A DNA stretch of 64,000 bases from Mustelus asterias (Eukaryota): assembly GCF_964213995.1 (NCBI RefSeq), contig NW_027590177.1:434001-498000 (forward strand), in the 5' to 3' direction. The position numbers and the translations under genes are program-made. The stretch's first letter is position 1. Each line of letters begins with the position of its first letter. The notes below the pieces were generated by a model that worked only from the letters and a program-made list of their open reading frames with translations, did no database searches and was not told the DNA's origin. Positions 1 to 64,000 of this stretch are shown in pieces.

Positions 1-859
1 ATTTAAAGGGCCTCTCACTGGTGTGAGTGACTTTGTGACTCAGCAGGTTGGGTAAATTAGTGAATCCCTTCCCACACACAGAGCAGGTGAATGGCCTCTC
101 TCCGGTGTGAACTCGCTGGTGTGTCAGCAGGGTGGATAACTGCGTGAATCCCTTTCCACAGTCAGAGCAAGTGAATGGTCTCTCCCCGGAGTGAACTCGC
201 TGGTGGTTCCGCAGGTTTGATGATGATCTAAATCTCATTGTGCAGAGAGAGCAGCTGAACGGTCTGTCCTCAGTGTGAATGCGCTGGTGGGACATCAGAT
301 CCCGAGAACTTTTGAAGCAACTCTCACAGTCAGAGCATTTAAAGGGTCTCTCATCGGTGTGAGTGACTTTGTGCGTCAGCAGGGCGGATGACCGAAAGAA
401 TCCCTTCCCACACACGTTGCAGGTGAACGGTCTCTCCCCAGTGTGAATTCGTTGGTGTGCCCGCAGTTCGGAGGACCGAGAGAATCCCTTCCCACACATG
501 GAGCAGCTGAACGGTCTCTCCCCGGTGTGAACTCGCTGGTGTCTCCGCAGTGTGGATGACCATTTAAATTTCATTGTGCAGTGAGAGCAGCTGAACGGTC
601 TCTCCTCACTGTGAATGCGCTGGTGGGACACCAGATCTCCAGAGCTTTTGAATCCGCTCCCACAGTCAGAGCATTTAAAGGGTCTCTCATTGGTGTGAGT
701 GAGATTGTGACTCAGCAGGTGGGAGAACTTACTGTATCCCTTCCCACAGACTGAGCAAGTGAAGGGTCTCTCCCGAGTGTGACTGCGTTGATGGATTTTC
801 AAATCACAGGGCAACATGAATCCTTGTCCACAATCGTCACATTTCCACAGTTTCTCCAT
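1..859 (-). CDS. C2H2 zinc-finger protein gene A (partial, runs off window start; 10 fingers visible)
   Basis: Manual translation from ATG at 859 (MEKLWKCDDCGQGF...) is open to position 1 with canonical CxxC-x12-HxxxH fingers and TGERPF-type linkers; inverted paralog of gene C. Absent from the ORF track because no stop lies in the window. Confidence 0.9.
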   Translation of the reverse strand, partial: MEKLWKCDDCGQGFMLPCDLKIHQRSHTRERPFTCSVCGKGYSKFSHLLSHNLTHTNERPFKCSDCGSGFKSSGDLVSHQRIHSEERPFSCSHCTMKFKWSSTLRRHQRVHTGERPFSCSMCGKGFSRSSELRAHQRIHTGERPFTCNVCGKGFFRSSALLTHKVTHTDERPFKCSDCESCFKSSRDLMSHQRIHTEDRPFSCSLCTMRFRSSSNLRNHQRVHSGERPFTCSDCGKGFTQLSTLLTHQRVHTGERPFTCSVCGKGFTNLPNLLSHKVTHTSERPFK

Positions 860-1924
860 GATGCGGGTGTCCTTGTGACTCTCCAGGTTTGATGATCAGT
901 TGAATCCTTGTCCACACAGAACACGTGTACGGTCTCTCTTCACTGTAAACGGTGCAATGTTGTTTCAGCCTGTGTAACCGGTTAAAGCTCTTTCCACTAT
1001 CAGTGGACTGGAACACTCTCACCCAGGTGTGTTCCAGTCACACTGATGTTTAAAATCTCCTGAAGCAAACAGATCAGACAAACATTGCTTTTCTAGATAC
1101 AAAGGTCGATGATATTCAGGTCCCAATAAATCTAATGACTCTGTCAAATCTTGATGTGATGTTTAGTTTGAAATTTCTGTCTGTAAGTTCTCACCTCCTG
1201 ATATCTATGAAAGGAATTTACAACAGGCATCACTGTCAGTACAGGATAGAAATTCAGAACAGACAATTCTAGTTTCTATGGAACATTCTTTCCTCTCTCA
1301 TTCCCCAAAATCTGTCAATCTCCATCCCACACACTCTCCCTCAATTCTCCCTCTGCTCTCCTGAGTATACAACCTCCCAAGTCTATTGAAGGTGCTGATT
1401 CAGGCTGATTAACAGATCCATGCTGACCACTTTCTGCATTGGACACAGAGATCTGAAAATCTACGTGTAACGACCGGCCTACACACCAGAAACTAAAATC
1501 TGTGCCATATGTGGGACCGGATAACTGGATTGGGAGAAGGAGAAGGATGTGGGGAAGAATTTTATTTTGGTGCAGAAAGGTCATTACCTGGAACCCGCTG
1601 CCTCAGAGGGTTGTGGAAGTGCAAATGATCCATGATTAATCTTCAAGCTGACAGCCACGTTAAAGTTTTACATTTGGCCATAAATGAGCAGCCTGATGCT
1701 GTGTGTAATGCACTGTATTACCTGGTTACAGATACATGAAGAATGTGAGGAGGATTTTTATTTAGGCAGCGAGTGGTGACCTGGAAGTTAAAAATTCAAC
1801 AAGTCCCCAATTTCCCCCAGAATGCAAAAGAAACACAAAAGCGGAGCAAAGAAAGTGTTTTACTCACAGATGTTGGCCTCTTTTAGGTCAAGAGGAGCTC
1901 ACGAACTATTTTTCAAATTGACAT

Positions 1925-1997
1925 TGAGCCAGCCAGGAGTCGCACCTGGAATCTTCTGATCCGTAGTCAGACGCGTTATCCATTGCGCCACTGGCCC
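1925..1997 (-). tRNA. TRNAR-ACG: tRNA-Arg(ACG), probably impaired (T-loop GTGCGA instead of GTTCGA; discriminator A)
   Basis: Reverse complement GGGCCAGTGGCGCAATGGATAACGCGTCTGACTACGGATCAGAAGATTCCAGGTGCGACTCCTGGCTGGCTCA differs from the canonical vertebrate tRNA-Arg-ACG at 2 positions. Confidence 0.9.
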
Positions 1998-2134
1998 ACA
2001 CTCTCACAGATGTTGGAGAGACAGGAGGAAGTTTGAGTCTGTCTGAAGCTCAATCTTCATTCAGAGAGAGAGCAGCAGCAGCTTTGCCGGGCAGGAATGA
2101 GCAGCTGAACAAGCTCATTGTGCAACTTCCGCAT

Positions 2135-2375
2135 GTAAATCCCAAACATTTACCCTGCTAATTCCCCCCGACACAAGGGTCAATTTAGCATGGCCAATCC
2201 ACCTAACCCGCACACCTTTGGACTGTGGGAGGAAACCAGAGCACCCGGATGAAACCCACACAGACATGGGGAGAACATGCAAACTCCACACAGACAGTGA
2301 CCCAGGCTGGAATTGAACCTGGGTCCCTGGTGTTATGATGCAGCAGTGCTAACCACTGTGCTGCCGTGCTGCCCC
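2135..2375 (-). mobile_element. HE1-type (V-SINE) tRNA-derived SINE, 3'-truncated
   Basis: GGGGCAGCACGGCAGCACAGTGGTTAGCACTGCTG head with A/B boxes and TGTGTGGAGTTTGCA core, shared with many copies in the window. Confidence 0.85.
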
Positions 2376-2778
2376 ATTTTATAAATACCATGGAAGCAGA
2401 GGAGGTTTCCTAGATTGATTCCCAATCCAGTAGTGTGAAATGTTAACTCTGTTTCTCTCTCCACAGATGCTGCCAGACCTGCTGCGTTTTTCCAGTCCTT
2501 TCTGTATTTATTTCAGATCTACCTGTAGTGGGGGGAAAAACACTATTTACTATCCAGGATAAAATAAATGTCCTTCATCAGCTTTTGTGGATCATTTCAG
2601 TGGCAATGTGCTCTCCCAGGCTCAAAGAGCATCAGCCCACTGGAAGCAAAGTCGTGCGATCGGCCAGTCCAGCAGAAAGAATCTCTCCCACCCTTCCACT
2701 TCACCAACTATAAGAATAAACATGGTTCAGTCCTGGATGTGATTAATGGCAGGAATAACAGCAGAATCCAACCCGTCA

Positions 2779-3789
2779 TCACTTGTGAACTTGCTGGTGT
2801 GTCCGCAGGCTGGATGACTGAGTGAATCCCTTCCCACACACACAGCAAGTGAACGGTCTCTCCCCAGTGTGAACTCGCTGGTGTATCCGCAGGTGTGATG
2901 ACGTTCTAAATCTCTTTGAGCAGTGAGAGCAGCTGAATGGTCTATCCTCAGTATGAATGCGCTGGTGAATCATCAGTTCCCGAGAGCTTTTGAAACCACT
3001 CCCACAGTCAGAACATTTAAAGGGTCTCTCATTGGTGTGAGTGAGATTGTGGTTCTGCAGGCTGGATGACTGAGTGAATCCCTTCCCACACACAGAGCAG
3101 GTGAACGGTCTCTCCCCAGTGTGAACTCGCTGGTGTATCCGCAGGTGGGATGGCGTTCTAAATTTCTTTGCGCAGTGAGAGCAGCTGAACGGTCTCTCCC
3201 CAGTGTGAATGTGCTGGTGGATAATCAGTTCCCGAGAGCTTTTGAAACCACTCCCACAGTCAGAGCATTTAAAGGGCCTCTCATTGCTATGAGTGACTTT
3301 GTGTTTCGACAGGTTGGATAACTGCGTAAATCCTTTCCCACACACCAAGCAGCTGAACGGTCTCTCCCCAGTGTGAATGCGCTGGTGAATCATCAGTTCC
3401 CGAGAGCTTTTGAAATCACTCCCACAGTCAGAGCATTTAAAGGGTCTCTCATTGCTGTGAGTGACTTTGTGTTTCGACAGGTTAGATAACTGCATAAATC
3501 CTTTCCCACACACCAAGCAGGTGAATGGTCTCTCTCCAGTGTGAACACGCTGGTGTTTCTGCAGATCGGGTAAATGAGCAAATCCGTTCCCACACTCAAA
3601 GCAGATGAACGCTCTTTCTCCAATATGAACCAGCTGATGTCGCTGCAGATGATATAACCGAGTGAATCTCTGCCCACACACAGAGCAGGTGAATGGCCTC
3701 TCCCCGGTGTGACTGCGTCGATGAATTTCCAATTTACAGGGAGCTCTGTATCTTTTTCCACAGTCCCCACATTTCCACCGTTTCTCCAT
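2779..3789 (-). CDS. C2H2 zinc-finger protein gene B (336 aa, 12 fingers, no effector domain)
   Basis: ORF track; 12 x 28-aa fingers; upstream acceptor TTTACAG|GATAT at 4148/4147. Confidence 0.92.
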   Translation of the reverse strand: MEKRWKCGDCGKRYRAPCKLEIHRRSHTGERPFTCSVCGQRFTRLYHLQRHQLVHIGERAFICFECGNGFAHLPDLQKHQRVHTGERPFTCLVCGKGFMQLSNLSKHKVTHSNERPFKCSDCGSDFKSSRELMIHQRIHTGERPFSCLVCGKGFTQLSNLSKHKVTHSNERPFKCSDCGSGFKSSRELIIHQHIHTGERPFSCSHCAKKFRTPSHLRIHQRVHTGERPFTCSVCGKGFTQSSSLQNHNLTHTNERPFKCSDCGSGFKSSRELMIHQRIHTEDRPFSCSHCSKRFRTSSHLRIHQRVHTGERPFTCCVCGKGFTQSSSLRTHQQVHK

Positions 3790-4604
3790 GGTGCGGGTGT
3801 CCTTGTGACTCTCCAGGTTAAACAGTCAGTTAAATCTCACAAAGAACACGGGTACAGTCTCTCCCCGCTGTGAATGCTGCGATGTATTTTCAGGCTGTGT
3901 AACTGGTTAAAGCTCTTTCCACACTCAGTGCACTGGAACACTCTCACTCGGGTGTATCTGTGCCTTGGTGCTTTTCCAGTCACATTGATATTAAAGACCT
4001 GTTTTCGCAGACAGAACAGAGAAACATTTCTCCTTCCAGATTCAAAGACTGATAATATTCAGGTCCGATGAATTGAGTGATGGTGTCAGATGCTGATGTG
4101 ATGTTTGTTTCAAGATTTTGGTCTGTCAATCCTCACCTTCTCATATCCTGTAAACGAGTTTGAAAAATTCATCAATGTCAGCACAGGATAGAAATTCAGA
4201 ACAGACAATTCTAGTTTCTATGGAACATTCTTCCTCTCTCATTCCCCAAAAGCTGTAAATCTCCATCCCACACACTCTCCCTCCATTCTCACTCTGCTGT
4301 ATCTAATATTCACCCTCCCAATTCTCCTGAAGGTGCTGATTGAGGCTGATTGACAGATCCATGCTCACTGCTTCCTGCCCTGGACACAGAGAGCTGGAAA
4401 TCTCCATGCAGGCGGCCAGACAGATATATGTCTATCTGACTGGACTAACAATGTGTGGAATGTACAGACTGGATTCACTTCCTTTCCCTTCAGTTGCTGC
4501 AAGTCCCCAATTTCCCCCAGAATGAGAAAAGAAATGGAAAGGGGGAGAAAAGAAAGTGTTTTACTCACAGATGTGGGCCTCTTTGAAGGTAAAACAAGCG
4601 GCTT

Positions 4605-4674
4605 TGCATTGCCCGGGATCGAACCCAGGCCTCCTGCATGGCGGGCGAGAATTCTACCACTGAACCACCAATGC
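4605..4674 (-). tRNA. TRNAG-GCC: tRNA-Gly(GCC)-derived gene, degenerate (likely pseudogene)
   Basis: Reverse complement GCATTGGTGGTTCAGTGGTAGAATTCTCGCCCGCCATGCAGGAGGCCTGGGTTCGATCCCGGGCAATGCA; A and B boxes recognisable; U33>C, CpG-type transitions in the anticodon arm and a 1-nt deletion in the T arm; TTTT about 10 nt downstream. Confidence 0.85.
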
Positions 4675-4824
4675 ACAGGGCAGAGAAAACTGCTCAGTTC
4701 TTTCAACCAGTGCTTTCACATGCAAAGAAATGTTGATGATTTGCAGCAGCAAATTCAATGCTGCTAACACACACACACAACAACACTGTTGGAGAGAGGA
4801 GGAAGATTGAATCTGTCCACTCCC

Positions 4825-5000
4825 CTTCCGGGGCCTTCCGGGGCTGCGCATGTCCAAGGGAGGGGGGAAGCTGCGCATGTGCGGGGGAGTGCCCACCCAC
4901 TGACCTTCATTCTGAGGTGTTGACCAATGGGAACTCTGGAGGACCGGAAAGACTCTGGTCCTCCAGCCAATCAGAGCTCCCCATTGTCTGAATGCGGAAG
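4825..5000. promoter_or_regulatory. Putative bidirectional Pol II promoter between divergent tRNA-ZNF cassettes B and C
   Basis: Two TGCGCATG (NRF1-like) sites, ETS-like CTTCCGG/CGGAAGT, CCAAT at 4924 and 4967, palindrome CTGGAGGACC-N11-GGTCCTCCAG (4936-4966). Confidence 0.65.
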
Positions 5001-6917
5001 TGGACAATGAGCTTGTTCAGCTGCTCATTCCTGTCCAGCAAAGCTGCTGCTGCTCTGTCTCTCAATGAAGATTGAGCTTCAGACAGACTCAAACTTCCTC
5101 CTGTCTCTCCAATATCTGTGAGAGTGTGGGTCAGTGGCGCAATGGATAACGCGTCTGACTATGGATCAGAAGATTCCAGGTTTGACTCCTGGCTGGCTCG
5201 ATGTCAATTTGAAAAATAGTTTGTGAGCTCCTTTTGACCTAAAAGAGGCCAACATCTGTGAGTAAAACACTTTCTTTGCTCCGCTTTTGTGTTTCTTTTG
5301 CATTCTGGGGGAAATTGGGGACTTGTTGAATTTTTAACTTCCAGGTCACCACTCGCAGTCGAAACAGAAATCCTCCTCACATTCTTCATGTATCTGTAAC
5401 CAGGTAATACAGTGCATTACACGACCATCAGTCAGCTCATTTATGGCCAAATGTAAAACTTTAACGTGGCTGTTAGCTTGAAGATTAATCATGGATCATT
5501 TGCACTTCCACAACCCTCTGAGGCAGCGGGTTCCAGGTAATGACCTTTCTGCACCAAAATAAAATTCTTCCCCACATCCTTCTCCTTCTCCCAATCCAGT
5601 TATCCAGTCCCACATATGGCACAGATTTTAATTTCTAGCGTGTAGGCCGGTCGTTACACGTAGATTTTCAGATCTCTGTGTCCAATATAGAAAGTGGTCA
5701 GCATGGATCCGTTAATCAGTCTGAATCAGCATCTTCAATAGACTTGGGGGGTTGTATACTCAGGAGAGCAGAGGGAGAATTGAGGGAGAGTGTGTGGGAT
5801 GGAGATTGACAGATTTTGAGGAAAGAATGTTCCATAGAAACTAGAATTGTCTGTTCTGAATTTCTATCCTGTACTGACAATGATGTCTATTGTAAATTCC
5901 TTTCATAGATATCAGGAGGTGAGGATTTACAGACAGAAATTTCAAACTAAACATCACATGAAGATTTGACAGAGTCATTCGATTTATTGGGACCTGAATA
6001 TCATCGACCTTTGATCTGTTTGCTTCAGGAGATTTTAAACATCAGTGTGACTGGAACACACCCGAGTGAGAGTGTTCCAGTCCACTGATAGTGGAAAGAG
6101 CTTTAACCAGTTACACAGGCTGAAAATACATTGCACCGTTTACAGTGAAGAGAGATCGTACACGTGTTCTGTGTGGACAAGGATTCAACTGATCATCAAA
6201 CCTGGAGAGTCACAAGGACACCCGCATCATGGAGAAACTGTGGAAATGTGACGATTGTGGACAAGGATTCATGTTGCCCTGTGATTTGGAAATTCATCAA
6301 CGCAGTCACACTCGGGAGAGACCCTTCACTTGCTCAGTCTGTGGGAAGGGATACATTAAGTTCTCCCACCTGCAGAGTCACAATCTCACTCACACCAATG
6401 AGAGACCCTTTAAATGCTCTGACTGTGGGAGTGGATTCAAAAGCTCTGGAGAACTGGTGTCCCACCAGCGCATTCACACTGAGGAGAGACCGTTCAGCTG
6501 CTCTCACTGCACAATGAAATTTAAATGGTCATCCACACTGCGGAGACACCAGCGAGTTCACACCGGGGAGAGACCATTCACCTGCAACGTGTGTGGGAAG
6601 GGATTCTTTCGGTCATCCGCCCTGCTGACGCACAAAGTCACTCACACCGATGAGAGACCCTTTAAATGCTCTGACTGTGAGAGTTGCTTCAAAAGTTCTC
6701 GGGATCTGATGTCCCACCAGCGCATTCACACTGAGGACAGACCATTCAGCTGCTCTCTCTGCACAATGAGATTTAGATCATCATCAAACCTGCAGAACCA
6801 CCAGCGAGTTCACACCGGAGAGAGGCCATTCACCTGCTCTGTGTGTGGGAAGGGATTCACTAATTTACCCAACCTGCTGAGTCATAAAGTCACTCACACC
6901 AGTGAGAGGCCCTTTAA
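4992..6917. repeat. Right arm of a ~2 kb inverted segmental duplication (left arm 1-2134)
   Basis: Direct comparison: tRNA-Arg, donor, intron and ZNF exon are near-identical reverse complements. Confidence 0.92.
5128..5200 (+). tRNA. tRNA-Arg(ACG)-derived pseudogene with anticodon mutated to ATG
   Basis: GGGTCAGTGGCGCAATGGATAACGCGTCTGACTATGGATCAGAAGATTCCAGGTTTGACTCCTGGCTGGCTCG; three C>T changes versus Arg-ACG (position 4, anticodon, C56). Confidence 0.88.
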
Positions 6918-7587
6918 ATGCTCGGACTGTGGGAGTGAATTCAAAATTTCTGGGGAACTGGTGTCCCACCAGCGCATTCACACTGCGGACAGACCGTTCA
7001 GCTGCTCTCTCTGCACAAAGAGGTTTAAGAGGTCATCCACACTGCAGAGACACCAGCAAGTTCACACCAGGGAGAGACCGTTCATCTGCTCTGTGTGTGG
7101 GAAGGGATTCAGTCAGTCATTCACCCTGCTGACACACCAGCGTCTTCACACCGAGGAGAGACCGTTCACCTGCACCGAGTGTGGGAAGGGATTCACTCAG
7201 TCATCCACCCTGCTGACTCACCAGCAAGTTCACAGCGGGGAGAGACCGTTCACCTGCTCCGAGTGTGGGAACAGATTCACTCGGTTATCCAGCCTGCAGA
7301 GACACAAAGTCACTCACTCCCAGGAAAGACCCTTTAAATGCTCTGACTGTGGGAGTGGCTTCAAAATTGCTGAGCATCTGATAGACCACCAGCGCATTCA
7401 CACTGGGGAGAGACCGTTCAGCTGCTCTCACTGCACAAAGAGGTTTGGAAGGGCATGCACACTGAGGAGACACCAGCGAGTTCACACTGGGAGAGACCAT
7501 TCACCTGCTCTGTGTGTGCGGAAGGATTCACTCCATACCCCAGCTGCTGAGGCACAATGTCCCTCACACCCAGGAGAGACCCTTTAA
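6229..7587 (+). CDS. C2H2 zinc-finger protein gene C (452 aa; 15 intact fingers then a frameshifted tail)
   Basis: ORF track; 1-nt deletion at ACTGGGAGAGA (~7486-7496) shifts frame; decayed fingers continue to the ancestral stop CACAAGTGA at ~7721. Acceptor TTTCATAG|ATATC at ~5908. Confidence 0.88.
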   Translation: MEKLWKCDDCGQGFMLPCDLEIHQRSHTRERPFTCSVCGKGYIKFSHLQSHNLTHTNERPFKCSDCGSGFKSSGELVSHQRIHTEERPFSCSHCTMKFKWSSTLRRHQRVHTGERPFTCNVCGKGFFRSSALLTHKVTHTDERPFKCSDCESCFKSSRDLMSHQRIHTEDRPFSCSLCTMRFRSSSNLQNHQRVHTGERPFTCSVCGKGFTNLPNLLSHKVTHTSERPFKCSDCGSEFKISGELVSHQRIHTADRPFSCSLCTKRFKRSSTLQRHQQVHTRERPFICSVCGKGFSQSFTLLTHQRLHTEERPFTCTECGKGFTQSSTLLTHQQVHSGERPFTCSECGNRFTRLSSLQRHKVTHSQERPFKCSDCGSGFKIAEHLIDHQRIHTGERPFSCSHCTKRFGRACTLRRHQRVHTGRDHSPALCVRKDSLHTPAAEAQCPSHPGETL

Positions 7588-28468: not shown

Positions 28469-30189
28469 TGAAGGTAGTTTGCCGCAAATTTGGGGTGATA
28501 ACAATGGGCTGGATGTTGCTCAGAATGTGGAGCACTGCAGCAAAGTACAGAGAGACAGAGACAGAGCAGCAAACTGGACTGAGAAATGGAGTCTGCAGAC
28601 TGGAACTGGCAGCATGAGGAGAGGTTATTTAGTCTAACACTCACAGCAATCTACAACCCACCCCCATTACCGAGACAGTGAGACAGAGATTACAAACACT
28701 CACCAACACAGCTCCACTGAAACGTCCCAGGAAAAAGGGGGAATCTGTGGCAGTTCCTGTCCTGATATAGCCCCAGGACTGTCACTCAAACCCCCAACCC
28801 GGCCCAGTTTACAGCTCAGCCTCTCAGCTTGCAGCTTCCTGCACCTTGAGCCAACCCTATCCAGGTGTGGGAGGGATGTGGAACCCCAGAGTGGGGGGAG
28901 GGGTGACCTCCTGCTGTGCCCCAAATAGTTTCTCCTTCCCCTCCCCCTTGGCGCTCTAAGGTCTGAATGTGGATGTGTTGATGGACATTGCAGAGCCTCA
29001 CTGATATGTGCCTGTACCTTATCCTGGGTCACCCCCTCCCCCTGGGTTCAGTGTGTTCAGTTCCCTGCTTCTTTCCCTGCTGAACCTTCAGTTAATCAAA
29101 AACAGAAAGTGCTGGAAAACCTCAGCAGGCCTGACAGCATCTGTGATCATCCAGACTGGAAGCATTAACTCTATTCTCTCCACAGACGCTGAGATTTCCA
29201 GCATTTTCTGTTTCTGTTTCAGATTCCAGCACCCGCAGTATTTTGCTTTTATCTTCATTTAAACAAGCATTCTTTGACGGCCTTTACCCTCCGTGCTCCT
29301 TTCCAGAGCTTCCCACCTTCTGCTATTGTCCCTGACTCCCACATTAACTCTGTCATTCCTCCCCTTTACCCCGCTCACCCTGTCTAAAGTCAGGCTCAGA
29401 GTTTTACCGCCATCTCCCCCTCCCCCAGCCTCCACATCCCAACACCCGGAATCTCTAACCCAGCGGTTCCAGTTTGTCTGGTTTGAGTTCAGATTTGCCG
29501 CAGCACCGACAGGATTTCACTTCAAACCAGCCGGAACTGACTGCTCACAAATCCCAAAATGTTTCTCCAGCAGCCCGGGCTTGTTAACGTTGTTTAAAGT
29601 CAGCGCCCAAATGCAGTTACTCTCCTCAGTTTAAAAAACTTCTCCGTTTAATCTAAGGTATTATTCACACCAGACACAAATATAAAATTGTGACCGTTAC
29701 CCCCCCCCCCCTCCCCCACCCGGCCACCCAGACCCGAGCTGGGGTGTCCTGAGTAAGAGACATCTGTTCCAGGTGTGACAATTCTTACACATTGTCTGGT
29801 TGACATCAAACGGAAAACGCTGGAAATATTCATGAATGAAAGCAAATTGCTGCTTTTGTCAAAGGGGTCACCTGGACTCGAAACCTCAGCTCTTTCTGTC
29901 TCCTGCCAGACCTGCTGAGATTTTCCAGCGTTTTCTCTTTTGGCTGGAAATACTCAACAAGTCAGGCAGCCTCTGTGGAGAGAGAAACAGACTGAATGTG
30001 ACCTGTCATCGGAACTGGGAAATATATTATTATTTCTCGCACCTAAAAGAGACACTTTACAGCCTTCAGAACAAAACTGAGTCCAACAATTTTACACCAC
30101 AATCTCTGCCCCCATTGTGTTCTGTGTTTCGTTGCTGCTTTTTTCACCTCATTTCCCTCTTGTTTACTTTACATTCAGACTATCGCTCA

Positions 30190-48136: not shown

Positions 48137-49450
48137 CTAACATTTCTCCCAGATGGTCTGTCCAATGAGGTGCAACTTCATTGCATCATTGCTGATGTAT
48201 TTACCTTGCTCTGACAAGGGGATTAGATCTTTAATCTCAGCATTCTCTGAGTGCGGAACCTGGAGGGTCTTCACTTCATTCACAAACCACACACCATTGA
48301 CACATTGGTAAAGCAGAATGCTCAGCTTGTGAGAATGTGTCTTGCCAGCTAGTTCACAATTGCTCACTGAGACAAGGAGAGTGGAAAAGTCATCCTCCTG
48401 CTGAATCTCACCATATCGCATGCGATTGTGAAAATTGTTCCTTGGCCGCTGGATCCTTTGACGATTTGGGCAAAAGGTAACACGCCATTGAGTCTTCAGT
48501 TTGAAATGGCTGGTCGAGAACGATGTCCCAATAGATGTTTGATTCATCATCTGATATCCTGTGATGTCCCAGAGGTGGCTGAAACTTCCTGATGTATACA
48601 GCCTCATGGTAAATGGGATGGTGGTGATATCATGGTGTTGGCTGATGGAGTCCATGGGCAAAAGGTGCACTTGGTAAACCAGCAAGCTCTCCCGGAGCAG
48701 GTAGGTAGAGATTGCCTCAGGTAGGCTTCCTCTGGCTTGGAGGTCAAACAGTTTCTCTGGGGGCATCATAGGATAGCGAATGTGGTGCAGCATTTCTTCA
48801 ATATAGGCAGGATGCAGTGAAAGCCATCTCACCAGGGCTTGGAAAAGGATCACTTCATTCTCCAGCACCAGGTCAGACCTTTGGAGGAGAGCAGAGAGTT
48901 CATGGCACTCCATCGATGACCAGTCTGGCGACTTTATGACGCTACCAATGTTCCAGGCTATCAACCGGAGGCATTTTTCTTCCAGTTGGGTCAGACCAGT
49001 CAGCTTGGCATATTTCTGCCATGTGATGGCGCGGTTGGAGGAGTCTGGGGCAGCCACATTGGCCAACATGAATTGCTGGCAGCTTTCTCTCAGCTCCTGG
49101 ACATTGTACTTCTCTGACAGACGGTGAAGGGGCTGCACATTCTCGGTGCTGAGGGTGACACTCCCACTGTACAGATACCTCAGGAAGTCCTGGAAGTGAT
49201 CCAGGCACTCCTCTTCCTCAGTGAGGTGGACAGTCCGGCCTTTAGCATCCGACCAACGCTCAGTGTCCAACAGGGTCCTGAAGACGTCACTTCGCACGAC
49301 CAGGATGAACCTGTGGGCGTTCAGTGTGAGCTTTTTGTTCACAACCAGTTTGATGTCACTGAAATCCTCCTTGTTGAACAGGGCAGAGAAGGTATTAACG
49401 AAACTAGTCTGGTGATTGAGGTTCTCCGATGGCCCAGTGACATCCATCAT
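48137..49450 (-). CDS. BTB/POZ-BACK domain protein, BTBD17-like (437 aa, single coding exon)
   Basis: FSDIKLVV..AHRFILVVRSDVF..FLRYLYSG..L (BTB); LSALLQRSDLVLENEVILFQALVRW..HIRYPMM (BACK); C-terminal MATH-like end YISNDAMKLHLIG; acceptor TTTCACTGACAG directly precedes the ATG. Confidence 0.88.
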   Translation of the reverse strand: MMDVTGPSENLNHQTSFVNTFSALFNKEDFSDIKLVVNKKLTLNAHRFILVVRSDVFRTLLDTERWSDAKGRTVHLTEEEECLDHFQDFLRYLYSGSVTLSTENVQPLHRLSEKYNVQELRESCQQFMLANVAAPDSSNRAITWQKYAKLTGLTQLEEKCLRLIAWNIGSVIKSPDWSSMECHELSALLQRSDLVLENEVILFQALVRWLSLHPAYIEEMLHHIRYPMMPPEKLFDLQARGSLPEAISTYLLRESLLVYQVHLLPMDSISQHHDITTIPFTMRLYTSGSFSHLWDITGYQMMNQTSIGTSFSTSHFKLKTQWRVTFCPNRQRIQRPRNNFHNRMRYGEIQQEDDFSTLLVSVSNCELAGKTHSHKLSILLYQCVNGVWFVNEVKTLQVPHSENAEIKDLIPLSEQGKYISNDAMKLHLIGQTIWEKC

Positions 49451-49801
49451 CTGTCAGTGAAATGCAAACAGTCAATAACTGATTAGGAGGAAGGAGACAG
49501 TGAGCAGGGATAATGGATACCAATGGAGAGCAGAATGTGACTGATGGAGCCCCCTCAGGCTAGCCCTCTGCCAGGGATCTGTACTGGGGCCTCAACTGAG
49601 GAATTTCACAGTAACTTCATTGCAGTGTTAATGTAAGCCTTACTTGTGACTAATAAATAAACTTTACTTTAACTTTTCACTACATTTATAAACAAGTCGG
49701 GTGAAAGACTAAAGAGACATATCTAAGTTTGCTGATGACATTGTTACGTGGTAAAATAAGTAATATATCCCTCTCTTCCACTCTCTCTGTTTCTCTCACT
49801 C

Positions 49802-60617: not shown

Positions 60618-61376
60618 TCACTTGTGAACTTGTTGGTGTCTCAGTAGGTCGGATGAAACTCTGAATCCCTTCCCACACTGAGAGCAGGTGAACGGCCTCT
60701 CCCCAGTGTGAACTCGGTGGTGCGTCCGCAGGTTGCATGGCTGAGTGAATCCCTTCCCACACTGAGAGCAAGTGAACGGTTTCTCCCCAGTGTGAACTCG
60801 CTGATGTGCCCGCAGGTTGGATACCCGAGTGAATCCCTTCCCACACTGAGGACAGGTGAATGGCCTCTCCCCCGTGTGAACTCGCTGGTGCCTCCGCAGG
60901 TGGGATGAACAAGTGAATCCCTCCCCACACTGAGAGCAGGTGAATGGCCTCTCCCCAGTGTGAACTCGCTGGTGCATCCGCAGGCTGGATGAACAAGTGA
61001 ATCCCTTCCCACACTGAGAGCAGGTGAATGGCCTCTCCCCAGTGTGAACTCGCTGGTGTGACTGCAGGTAGGATGATCGAGTGAATCCCTTCCCACACTG
61101 AGAGCAGGTGAACGGCCTCTCCCCAGTGTGAACTCGCTGATGTCTCTGCAGGTCGGATGACTGAGTGAATCCCTCCCCACACTGAGAGCAGGTGAACGGT
61201 CTCTCCCCAGTGTGAACTCGCTGGTGTCTCTGCAGTTCGGATGACCGAGTGAATCCCTCCCCACACTGAGAGCAGGTGAACGGCCTCTCCCCAGTGTGGC
61301 TGCGCCGATGAGCTTCCAGCTGAGATGGGACTCTGTACCTCTTCCCACAGTCCACACATTTCCATGGTTTCTCCAT
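60618..61376 (-). CDS. C2H2 zinc-finger protein gene H (252 aa, 9 fingers)
   Basis: ORF from ATG 61376 (MEKPWKC); acceptor TTTTCCAG|GATAC at 61728/61727; paralog of D. Confidence 0.92.
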
Positions 61377-62635
61377 GGTGCAGGTGTCCTTGCCTCTCCC
61401 TTGGGTTACCAATCAGTCGAAGCCTCGTCCACACACAGAACACGGGTACAGTCTCTCCCTGCTGTGAATGGTGTGATATTTATTCAGGGTGTGTAACTGG
61501 TTAAAGCTCTTTAGTCAGTGCACTGGAACACTCTCACTCGAGTGTGACAGTGTGTTGCTGCTTTTCCAATCACACTGACACGTGAAATCTTTTCAAATCA
61601 ACAGACCGGACAATCATTTCTCCTTCTAGATTCAAAGGCCGGTGATATTCAGCTCCCAAGGAATATGACTCTGTCAGATCTAGACGTGAAGTTTGAGATT
61701 TCAGTCTGTGATTCCTCTTTCAGTATCCTGGAAAATGAGTTTACAAAAGTCATCAGTGTCAGTGCAGGATAGAAATTCAGAACAGACAAATCTAGTTTCT
61801 ATCGAACATTCTTTCCTATTTCAGTCCTAAAAAGCTGTGAATCTCCATCCCACACACTCTCCCTCCATTCTCACTCTGCTGTATCTAATATTCACCCTCC
61901 CAATTCTCCTGAAGGTGCTGATTGAGGCTGATTGACAGATCCATGCTCACTGCTTCCTGTCCTGGACACAGAGACCATAACAAATAGGAGCTGCAGTCGG
62001 CCATTTGGCCCATCGAGCCTTTTAAACTATTCAATGAGATAATTCGTTCATCTACCTCAGCATAATTCTCCCCACACTAAACCCATATCCCTTGATATCT
62101 TCAATATCTAGAAACCAATCAATCTCTCTCTTGAAAATAGTTGATGACTGAGGCTTCACTGTCCTCAGGGGTTGAAAATTCCAAAGCTTTAGCACATCCT
62201 TGAGTGAAGAAATCCCCTCACATATTAGCTTTTGCTCCATCTTCTTGTCTGTTCCCCATAACTCTTGACACCCTTGTCAGTCAAAGATCTGTCTAACGGG
62301 AATATATTCAATGATCCTCAGCCTCCACTGGTCCCTGTGGAAGAGAAATCCAAAAGACTAACAACCCTCTGAGGGAAGAGATGTCTTGAAATATATAACG
62401 TAGCTACAGTTCCGTATTACAAGATATTCAGATCCCAAGGAATATGACTCTGTTTGGATGTGACGGTTGAGATTTTTGCCTTTGATTCCTCATTCAATAT
62501 CCTATGAAATGAGTTTGCAAAAGTCATCACAGTCAGTATAGGATAGAAATTCAGAGCAGACAATTCTAGTTTCTATGGAACATTCTTTCCTATTTCATTC
62601 CCAAAAAGTTGTAACTCTCCATCCATATCTATGGA

Positions 62636-63530: not shown

Positions 63531-63714
63531 ATATCAATGTCTTTAAGAGAGAGAGAGAGGGAAACCTGGGCCAACCTTTCCAGAGTCTGCAGCCTCCCTG
63601 GATTCACTTCCTTTCCCTTCAGTTGCTGCAAGTCCCCAATTTCCCCCCAAAATGAGAAAAGAAATGGAAAGGGGGAGAAAAGAAAGTGTTTTACTCACAG
63701 ATGTTGGCCTCTTT

Positions 63715-64000
63715 TAGGTCAAAACAAATAAACAAACTCAGATTAAGTCAGGACAAAGTAAAAGGGGCAGCTCCCCAAAAAGGAGGGGGAACAGCCCGAA
63801 CAGAAATCAAAGTACAAAGGAAACTTAAAAACATCAAATTAAAATGTGATTATTAGGGTCAATAATGCACCCCAACCCCTGCGGTGCCCAGCGGGCGCGG
63901 AAAGCGTCAACCTCGCCCGTGGACACCACATGCTCCCTCTCCAGGGACACCTGGCCGCGAACGTAGCCGCGGTAGAGGGGAAGACAGTCAGGATGGACGG
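63715..64000 (-). mobile_element. 3' end of a Tx1-clade (L1 group) non-LTR retrotransposon, continuing beyond the window
   Basis: 63998-63834 translates openly as VHPDCLPLYRGYVRGQVSLEREHVVSTGEVDAFRARWAPQGLGCIIDPNNHILI*, resembling Tx1 ORF2 C-termini (recognised from memory); CpG-rich; T-rich ~110-nt 3' UTR. Confidence 0.65.

Follow-up and report, generated by a model that had tools for sequence, protein, structure and literature searches.

Preferential insertion of a Tx1-clade LINE family near the end of putative ZNF first exons, with precursor tRNAs delivered as cargo

We consider it likely that a family of Tx1-clade LINEs has repeatedly hit a single base close to the end of a putative first exon in zinc-finger (ZNF) genes, and that the tRNA inserts found at this base arose by template switching of the reverse transcriptase (RT). 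New here are the recognition of the tRNA cassettes as insertions, the tRNA-Val head of older copies and the shift of the first target bases among subfamilies. PMC3747384 and PMC5786205 provide background on the subject. The Tx1 targets described in the papers cited here are RNA genes, microsatellites and other transposons, and to these a first exon of multicopy protein-coding genes would add a new niche. Searches of papers gave no account of ZNF exons as a Tx1 target or of tRNA cargo of this kind; an unpublished or subscription description may exist.

The window copy and its family

The window, the whole stretch of 64,000 nucleotides analysed here (G000:C145:434001-498000, in a genome of 3.68 Gb), ends within a copy of the family, for which the following features were recorded:

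63708-64000, minus strand: 3' end of a 5'-truncated, broken Tx1-clade LINE, extending past the window to G000:C145:499231
63834-63998, minus strand: C-terminal 54 codons of ORF2 plus stop (codons 63837-63998 open, stop 63834-63836)
63694-63707, minus strand: 3' copy of the target 14-mer CCAACATCTGTGAG, overlapping a putative splice donor GTGAGT
63598-63693, minus strand: start of a putative ZNF intron 1, common to cassette B and empty sites

The last bases of the element are AGAGG, up to 63708, and from 63707 the target follows with CCAACATC; this boundary was chosen because the target duplications of dispersed copies begin directly behind AGAGG. A poly(A) tail is lacking, and a target duplication right behind AGAGG, mostly of 12-15 bp, was seen in 28 of the 79 dispersed copies with the 5' junction in view. 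Including the part beyond the window, the copy measures 1,524 bp and shares 92.5-96.9% DNA identity with a young intact copy. The original prediction had described a young element with a 3' UTR and an open ORF2 end. A minus-strand 3' UTR and an open end of 54 codons are indeed present, and the last 84 codons are 96% identical to the intact ORF2, but the frame upstream is broken by stops, frameshifts and an 84-bp deletion, so that the copy cannot be called young; its truncated peptide gave no Pfam match.

Neither the tRNA nor the target duplication that had been expected beyond the 5' end was encountered, as ARAGORN found no tRNA in the 20 kb from C145:497001 and a 5' target duplication was looked for at the locus without success. 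The promoter half of the site appears to have been lost or rearranged, because the 5' flank is the start of another exon-donor-intron unit. Because the same 5' junction is common to at least 26 fetched loci (some of which may be haplotypes) within a duplicated block of several kb, the window copy appears to represent one middle-aged, now dead insertion multiplied by ZNF gene duplication. The flagged copy is an ordinary dead duplicate. Raw reads from a run with another species code contain both the element and the empty site; in that run 178 reads leave at 63707 into promoter-side sequence, and the filled junction is not certain.

An uninterrupted ORF2 of ~1,300 aa was found in 5 of the 8 tandem full-length copies examined, and an intact member of the family (L305) matched the Pfam domains Exo_endo_phos (E 6e-13) and RVT_1 (E 3e-37), corresponding to an APE endonuclease and an RT. 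A putative zinc knuckle of ORF1 scored 18.3 bits as zf-CCHC (E 0.0024), below the curated cut-off of 20.8, and the motif is present in all long copies. The best named full-length relative of the family ORF2 is the Xenopus Tx1 ORF2, with 49% identity at 100% cover. In a quick, unrooted tree of 26 selected ORF2 rows with no L1 outgroup, the family fell in a starred clade with P0005 (Xenopus Tx1L) and turtle, sturgeon and stingray proteins; the teleost 'pol-like' proteins BAC82609 and BAC82603, to which no family name is attached, belonged to another clade. With a stingray protein as sister, a cartilaginous fish is the likely host. By this ORF2 resemblance the family is placed in the Tx1 clade of non-LTR retrotransposons, as had been predicted.

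A preferred site at the end of a putative first exon

The window copy and three tRNA-bearing inserts, cassettes A, B and C, each lie upstream of a ZNF frame in the same orientation:

60621-61412, minus strand: C2H2 zinc-finger frame, 9 fingers, downstream of the Tx1 copy in the same orientation
6193-7584, plus strand: C2H2 zinc-finger frame, 15 fingers, downstream of cassette C
2782-3825, minus strand: C2H2 zinc-finger frame, 12 fingers, downstream of cassette B
2-895, minus strand: C2H2 zinc-finger frame, 10 fingers in view, downstream of cassette A
4793-5108, no strand assigned: putative bidirectional promoter (CCAAT boxes) and non-coding exon-1 sequence between the divergent ZNF genes B and C

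The near-identity of 63598-63720 to 4469-4590 on which the original prediction was built proved correct (94.6% match over 130 bp, 63598-63727 vs 4469-4597). Cassettes A and C form a pair because 6-2134 and 4992-7082 of the window are an inverted duplication with 87% identity. Amid the ZNF cluster there is also a 438-codon frame (48140-49453, minus strand), the start of which presumably resembles a BTB-domain protein. The sequence of 4793-5108 also precedes empty sites, and we infer that it functions as promoter and exon 1, with insertions falling where a non-coding exon 1, driven by the CCAAT promoter, would reach its splice donor.

The empty site (AAACTTCCTCCTGTC..CCAACATCTGTGAG, followed by TAAAAC) had 230 exact matches and its reversed control had none, and no tRNA was found within 1.5 kb of the 30 empty sites examined. 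AGAGG stands directly before the site at 294 sites. Exact tail patterns gave 918 five-A ends, including 217 of the TAC type, and 210 TT ends. Lying at the exon site were 56 of the 210 TT ends (27%) and 64 five-A ends vs 918 in total, the latter share of ~7% being approximate since the on-site and total patterns differ slightly; these on-site counts are inflated by gene duplication and perhaps also by uncollapsed haplotypes. A strong site preference within a putative ZNF exon 1, the other expectation of the original prediction, is thus borne out. Against a published definition of target-specific elements, by which more than 20% of flanks are of one kind (PMC4494074), the values are 27% for TT and ~7% for five-A ends, duplicates included. 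Because most copies lie off-site (73% of the TT-tail and >90% of the five-A ends), the family shows site preference and not strict specificity. Among copies examined on the largest contigs, none of 30 with a TT tail and one of 44 with a TAT tail lay at the site. The young TAC subfamily, of which 179 of the 217 ends lie outside contigs C1-C25, uses a site ~47 nt upstream of the exon-end site (about a dozen flanks examined).

Inserts at filled sites range from tails of ~7 to 50 nt through pieces of 87, 347, 388 and 1,901 nt to full-length copies, and several carry their own 14-bp duplication; distinct on-site insert lengths with their own duplications are 13, 24, 49, 347 and 388 nt and full length. 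Stacked insertions separated by the 14-mer were found at loci L154 and L158. Rough clustering of 5' junctions yielded ~52 classes, of which 18 have promoter or exon sequence within 450 nt, with twice-fetched sites not removed and some classes reflecting later rearrangement. By a rough estimate, a preference for 4-5 bases alone would place <1 of ~1,100 copies on ~1,000 such sites, as compared to the at least 18 classes observed. On-site and off-site copies are intermixed across the element tree. An unrooted tree of 127 3' ends joined 26 TC copies in a starred, short-branched clade, and the longest branches belonged to CCA copies.

A long form of the empty site, with an extra CT, was considered as resistant to insertion, an idea that was dropped when a wider pattern showed both long and short forms. 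The lone ACCTAAAAGAG at 30041-30051, to which the original prediction had pointed, is present, but its origin by insertion is unsupported, as no duplication is visible by eye and the 10-mer with one mismatch occurs 5 times vs 5.46 expected.

Other arrangements were noted at or near the site. A U2-headed element lies a few to tens of bases behind the exon-end site (L135, 1571-1671; L141, downstream flank), and L384 holds a 5S rRNA copy (911-1019, Rfam 63.5 bits) that is ~600 nt away from it, beyond the bidirectional promoter. Internally deleted derivatives of 1.7-2.6 kb that keep the 5' leader and the 3' end occur at the site in L182, L189, L190, L193, L196, L197 and L199 and make up a candidate non-autonomous family. 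At locus L319 (G000:C89:2431519-2433798) an insertion has become a minisatellite, in which a unit of ~132 bp made up of a Tx1 3' end and exon-1 sequence is repeated in tandem at least 15 times. At least 12 Tx1 ends ~680 bp apart form a tandem array on a large contig (G000:C4:68681754-68691939).

First bases of the target and priming

The first bases behind the element end differ among subfamilies. Off-site copies with a TT tail were followed by CC in 30 of 30 cases and those with a TAT tail by GC in 19 and CC in 6 of 26 (a further 18 TAT copies: 13 GCA, 5 CCA), whereas the two TAC types were followed by TC (21 of 22) and AC (4 of 5); the copies share ancestry, and a chi-square is not a clean test of these counts. 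In the 28 of 79 copies where a duplication is visible, the 5' duplicate also contains the subfamily bases, which must therefore have been part of the target before insertion. The same bases recur in on-site flanks, with CCAAC and GCAAC at the exon end and TCTCT ~47 nt upstream for the young type; the ACA subfamily fits less well, its off-site flanks being ACAA and its on-site flank ACAG, and this counts against the pairing model below.

On balance we lean towards RNA-DNA pairing at priming, atop a weak protein preference. The endonuclease would nick the bottom strand next to a weakly conserved motif on the upstream side, with C at -7 (22 of 28). The RNA, probably made from the host ZNF promoter, would run past AGAGG into the source locus, and the extra read-through bases would likely pair with the nicked DNA end, whereby each subfamily would come to prefer sites starting like its source site, which may have been CCA, then GCA, then TCT. 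After 13-16 nt the enzyme might sometimes jump to the oligo-U end of a Pol III precursor, or the RNA might be ligated there, and ZNF gene duplication would then multiply each insertion event. Pairing of target-like RNA bases with the nicked strand has been proposed for SART1Bm and R1Bm (PMC7265360), which are alike in the few RNA bases involved; their target is fixed (rDNA, telomere), whereas the bases preferred here shift by subfamily. A poly(A) retrocopy (L277, G000:C3:156.44 Mb) leads from an element end into the leader of the next copy, with the poly(A) joined where the leader exon has its putative splice donor; a duplication of 10 bp flanks the retrocopy, and read-through RNA therefore existed.

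Alternatively, with the same target and tRNA cargo, the endonuclease alone could set the site, changed by amino-acid substitutions, while the RNA ends at AGAGG. We regard this as possible, though rather doubtful. In vitro, nicking by the Tx1L endonuclease is almost entirely confined to its target, and the hairpin loop of the enzyme may read downstream bases (PMC1950540); in keeping with this, the CCA- and TC-type endonucleases, with 6-10% DNA difference, differ at ~15 recurrent residues, including F/Y in the hairpin loop, and the shared C at -7 points to protein read-out. However, the first bases flip from CCAA to GCAA to TCTC among lineages 90-97% alike, and off-site flanks mirror the home site for only 3-5 bases, which together with the read-through RNA of L277 and the precedent of SART1Bm and R1Bm argues for pairing. 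The identity of GCA- and TC-type endonucleases was dropped as proof of RNA guidance, since the only GCA-flanked full-length copy (L203) has mixed halves (5' half 99% TC-like, 3' half 94-97%) and is probably a recombinant; no GCA-type endonuclease was found in 20 further loci. Copies nested in same-family copies at matching TC or GCA bases were observed at L060, L110 and L301.

A tRNA-Val gene heads older full-length copies right behind the 5' duplicate (ARAGORN, 5 of 13 loci scanned), and the leader of young copies is 74% similar to this head region. Combining pairing with these heads, we tentatively propose, as a plausible scenario that falls somewhat short of probable, a vertebrate LINE in which read-through RNA programs the choice of target, each lineage taking over its landing sequence from the locus of its transcription. 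Such a LINE would have walked along the ZNF first exon from the CCAAC site to upstream sites, captured the exon and a tRNA-Val gene as leader, and planted whole Pol III precursor-tRNA genes in dozens of ZNF 5' UTRs. Subfamilies with different first bases offer a natural experiment on endonuclease versus RNA-DNA pairing in LINE site choice, a question that bears on LINE-based tools for targeted insertion.

tRNA precursors as cargo

The cassettes in the window consist of the following parts:

1877-2002, minus strand: cassette A insert, 126 bp (5-nt leader, tRNA-Arg(ACG) 1924-1998, trailer, Tx1 tail 1877-1891)
2003-2016, minus strand: 5' copy of the cassette A target duplication, perfect 14 bp
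1863-1876, minus strand: 3' copy of the cassette A target duplication
5123-5248, plus strand: cassette C insert, 126 bp, a duplicate of the A insertion (Tx1 tail 5234-5248)
5109-5122, plus strand: 5' copy of the cassette C target duplication, 1 mismatch
5249-5262, plus strand: 3' copy of the cassette C target duplication
4578-4786, minus strand: cassette B insert, 209 bp (tRNA-Gly dimer spacer, tRNA-Gly(GCC) 4604-4675, trailer to the T-run, 13-nt Tx1 tail 4578-4590)
4564-4577, minus strand: target 14-mer behind cassette B

On the 5' side of cassette B, ~6 bp of the target are repeated at 4787-4792, and the anticodon of cassette C is mutated to ATG, so that its tRNA is called tRNA-His. Because the tRNAs lie inside the target duplication, they are cargo delivered with the Tx1 tail and not the target. 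The tRNA inserts open with a short leader (or with array spacer) and reach up to the T-run ending the source trailer, and the Tx1 tail measures 13-16 nt, with a variant form in cassette B. The shared motif of the cassettes had been correctly located, and of the two origins then offered for it in A and C, a conserved target or the element's own end, the latter is supported.

The tRNA-Arg trailer pattern had 57 matches, with tail and site in 28 of the 30 examined. Because the downstream flanks of all 28 form one clade (98*), these Arg cassettes appear to descend from one insertion. The variation in their 5' duplicate had been considered as a sign of RNA-templated 3' copies, and is explained by one insertion plus upstream recombination. 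The inserted tRNA-Arg gave no sign of selection (96.9% pairwise identity in the insert vs 96.4% in the downstream flank), and no intact source gene was found for it. Two other loci are events independent of cassette A: L381 (C11), at an unrelated site and with a duplication of 12 bp, combines a different tail variant with the trailer and the 3' portion of this tRNA-Arg, and L321 (C7) has leader, tRNA and trailer as in cassette A without a Tx1 tail.

Cassette B, with 19 hits for the tRNA-Gly cassette, corresponds to part of a tRNA-Gly dimer that recurs at 1.8-kb intervals in an array on C2058, namely to its spacer, its second gene and the trailer, and its Tx1 tail begins where the source T-run ends; the native tRNA-Gly genes examined (10 array loci and one on C1) bear no Tx1 tail. 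At G000:C2058 and C1:83.09 Mb tRNA-Gly(GCC) dimers recur every 1.8 kb, the first gene having no T4 run behind it, which suggests that they are transcribed as dimeric precursors.

Of 30 filled sites sampled at first without selection, 2 contained a tRNA. Among 39 loci picked to skip already-seen sites, a third tRNA-like fragment was found at the site (L407, E 0.0076, below the Rfam gathering score), as were two unnamed cargos of ~100-150 nt with a 12-nt Tx1 tail (L385, L392, L397; L162, L167, L404, L410), for which L392 and L404 gave no Rfam match.

Precursors in sense orientation that end at the terminator are what one would expect if the enzyme switched template, or RNA was ligated, at an oligo-U end; both routes have been described for U6/L1 chimeras (PMC11838501; compare PMC4494074). 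As in these and the tRNA/L1 chimeras, the small RNA stands 5' of the LINE 3' end within a single duplication (cassette A, 14 bp perfect; L381, 12 bp). Human tRNA/L1 chimeras contain mostly antisense tRNA halves (PMC11838501), whereas the inserts described here have sense orientation, mostly comprise a whole precursor tRNA up to its terminator, have only 13-16 nt of tail and are delivered to a preferred site.

Among known systems, the closest named relative, Tx1L of Xenopus laevis (YTX2_XENLA, P14381; P0005), shares the APE and RT ORF2, with 49% identity over the whole length, and a site preference. Tx1L inserts into the DNA transposon Tx1D (PMC4494074, PMC1950540), whereas the preference of the shark family is for a putative first exon in protein-coding genes and is much looser. 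Crocodilian Tx1-Mar and SINEU (Kojima 2015, PMC4494074) share with the shark family a partial target preference, two sites in one target and template-switch small-RNA heads on passengers and full-length LINEs, and transcription from the flank has been proposed for them. Their heads are U1/U2 and their target is a Mariner transposon (PMC4494074), in contrast to precursor tRNAs with trailer and a ZNF gene exon.

Given the SINEU and Tx1-Mar precedent (PMC4494074), as well as 57 tRNA-Arg trailer matches and 19 tRNA-Gly cassette hits, the cassettes could be seen as a true SINE family with a tRNA head and a Tx1 tail that moves itself with Tx1 help. This seems improbable to us, as the single clade of the 28 Arg flanks indicates no independent amplification of the head-tail unit, the T-run before the tail should stop Pol III, and the off-site copy has a different tail and junction. 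Capture of precursor tRNAs by the LINE remains our preferred reading, and the cassettes would then record how a SINE is first born, by fusion of a tRNA head with a LINE tail, in three or four instances at a single site. They also place Pol III promoters beside ZNF promoters.

We find it very improbable that there is no targeting and that a few chance insertions were multiplied by ZNF duplication and recombination, the short tails being deletion remnants. Although duplication accounts for the window copy (at least 26 loci) and the tRNA-Arg cassettes, and upstream flanks recombine with empty paralogs, it does not explain the varied lengths with their own duplications, the different subfamily tails at one base, the stacked insertions or the several unrelated cargos; moreover, on-site and off-site copies are mixed in the element tree, and the data point toward more than ~10 origins of on-site copies.

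The zebrafish element Dewa, which we take to be a Tx1-clade member, is like the shark family in this membership and in its closeness to tRNA. Dewa targets a tRNA array, namely the tRNA-Leu gene spacer (PMC3706591), whereas here arrays donate cargo and the empty site has no tRNA. That a Dewa-like family targets the trailers of native tRNA genes in tRNA-ZNF cassettes, as originally predicted, has next to no probability, for although the tail adjoins a tRNA in A, B and C, there is no tRNA in the 20 kb beyond the window copy or at the 30 empty sites, the tRNAs lie inside the duplication, the native tRNA-Gly genes examined lack the tail and tRNAs occur in just 2 of 30 unselected filled sites. In its mode of insertion the family works like Tx1-Mar with SINEU and not like Dewa. 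A SINEU-like chimera was also observed at L091 (G000:C1:112.24 Mb, 1862-2545, minus strand), where two tandem U2 snRNA heads (Rfam U2, 99.5 and 99.7 bits) are each joined to ~400 nt of the Tx1 3' end.
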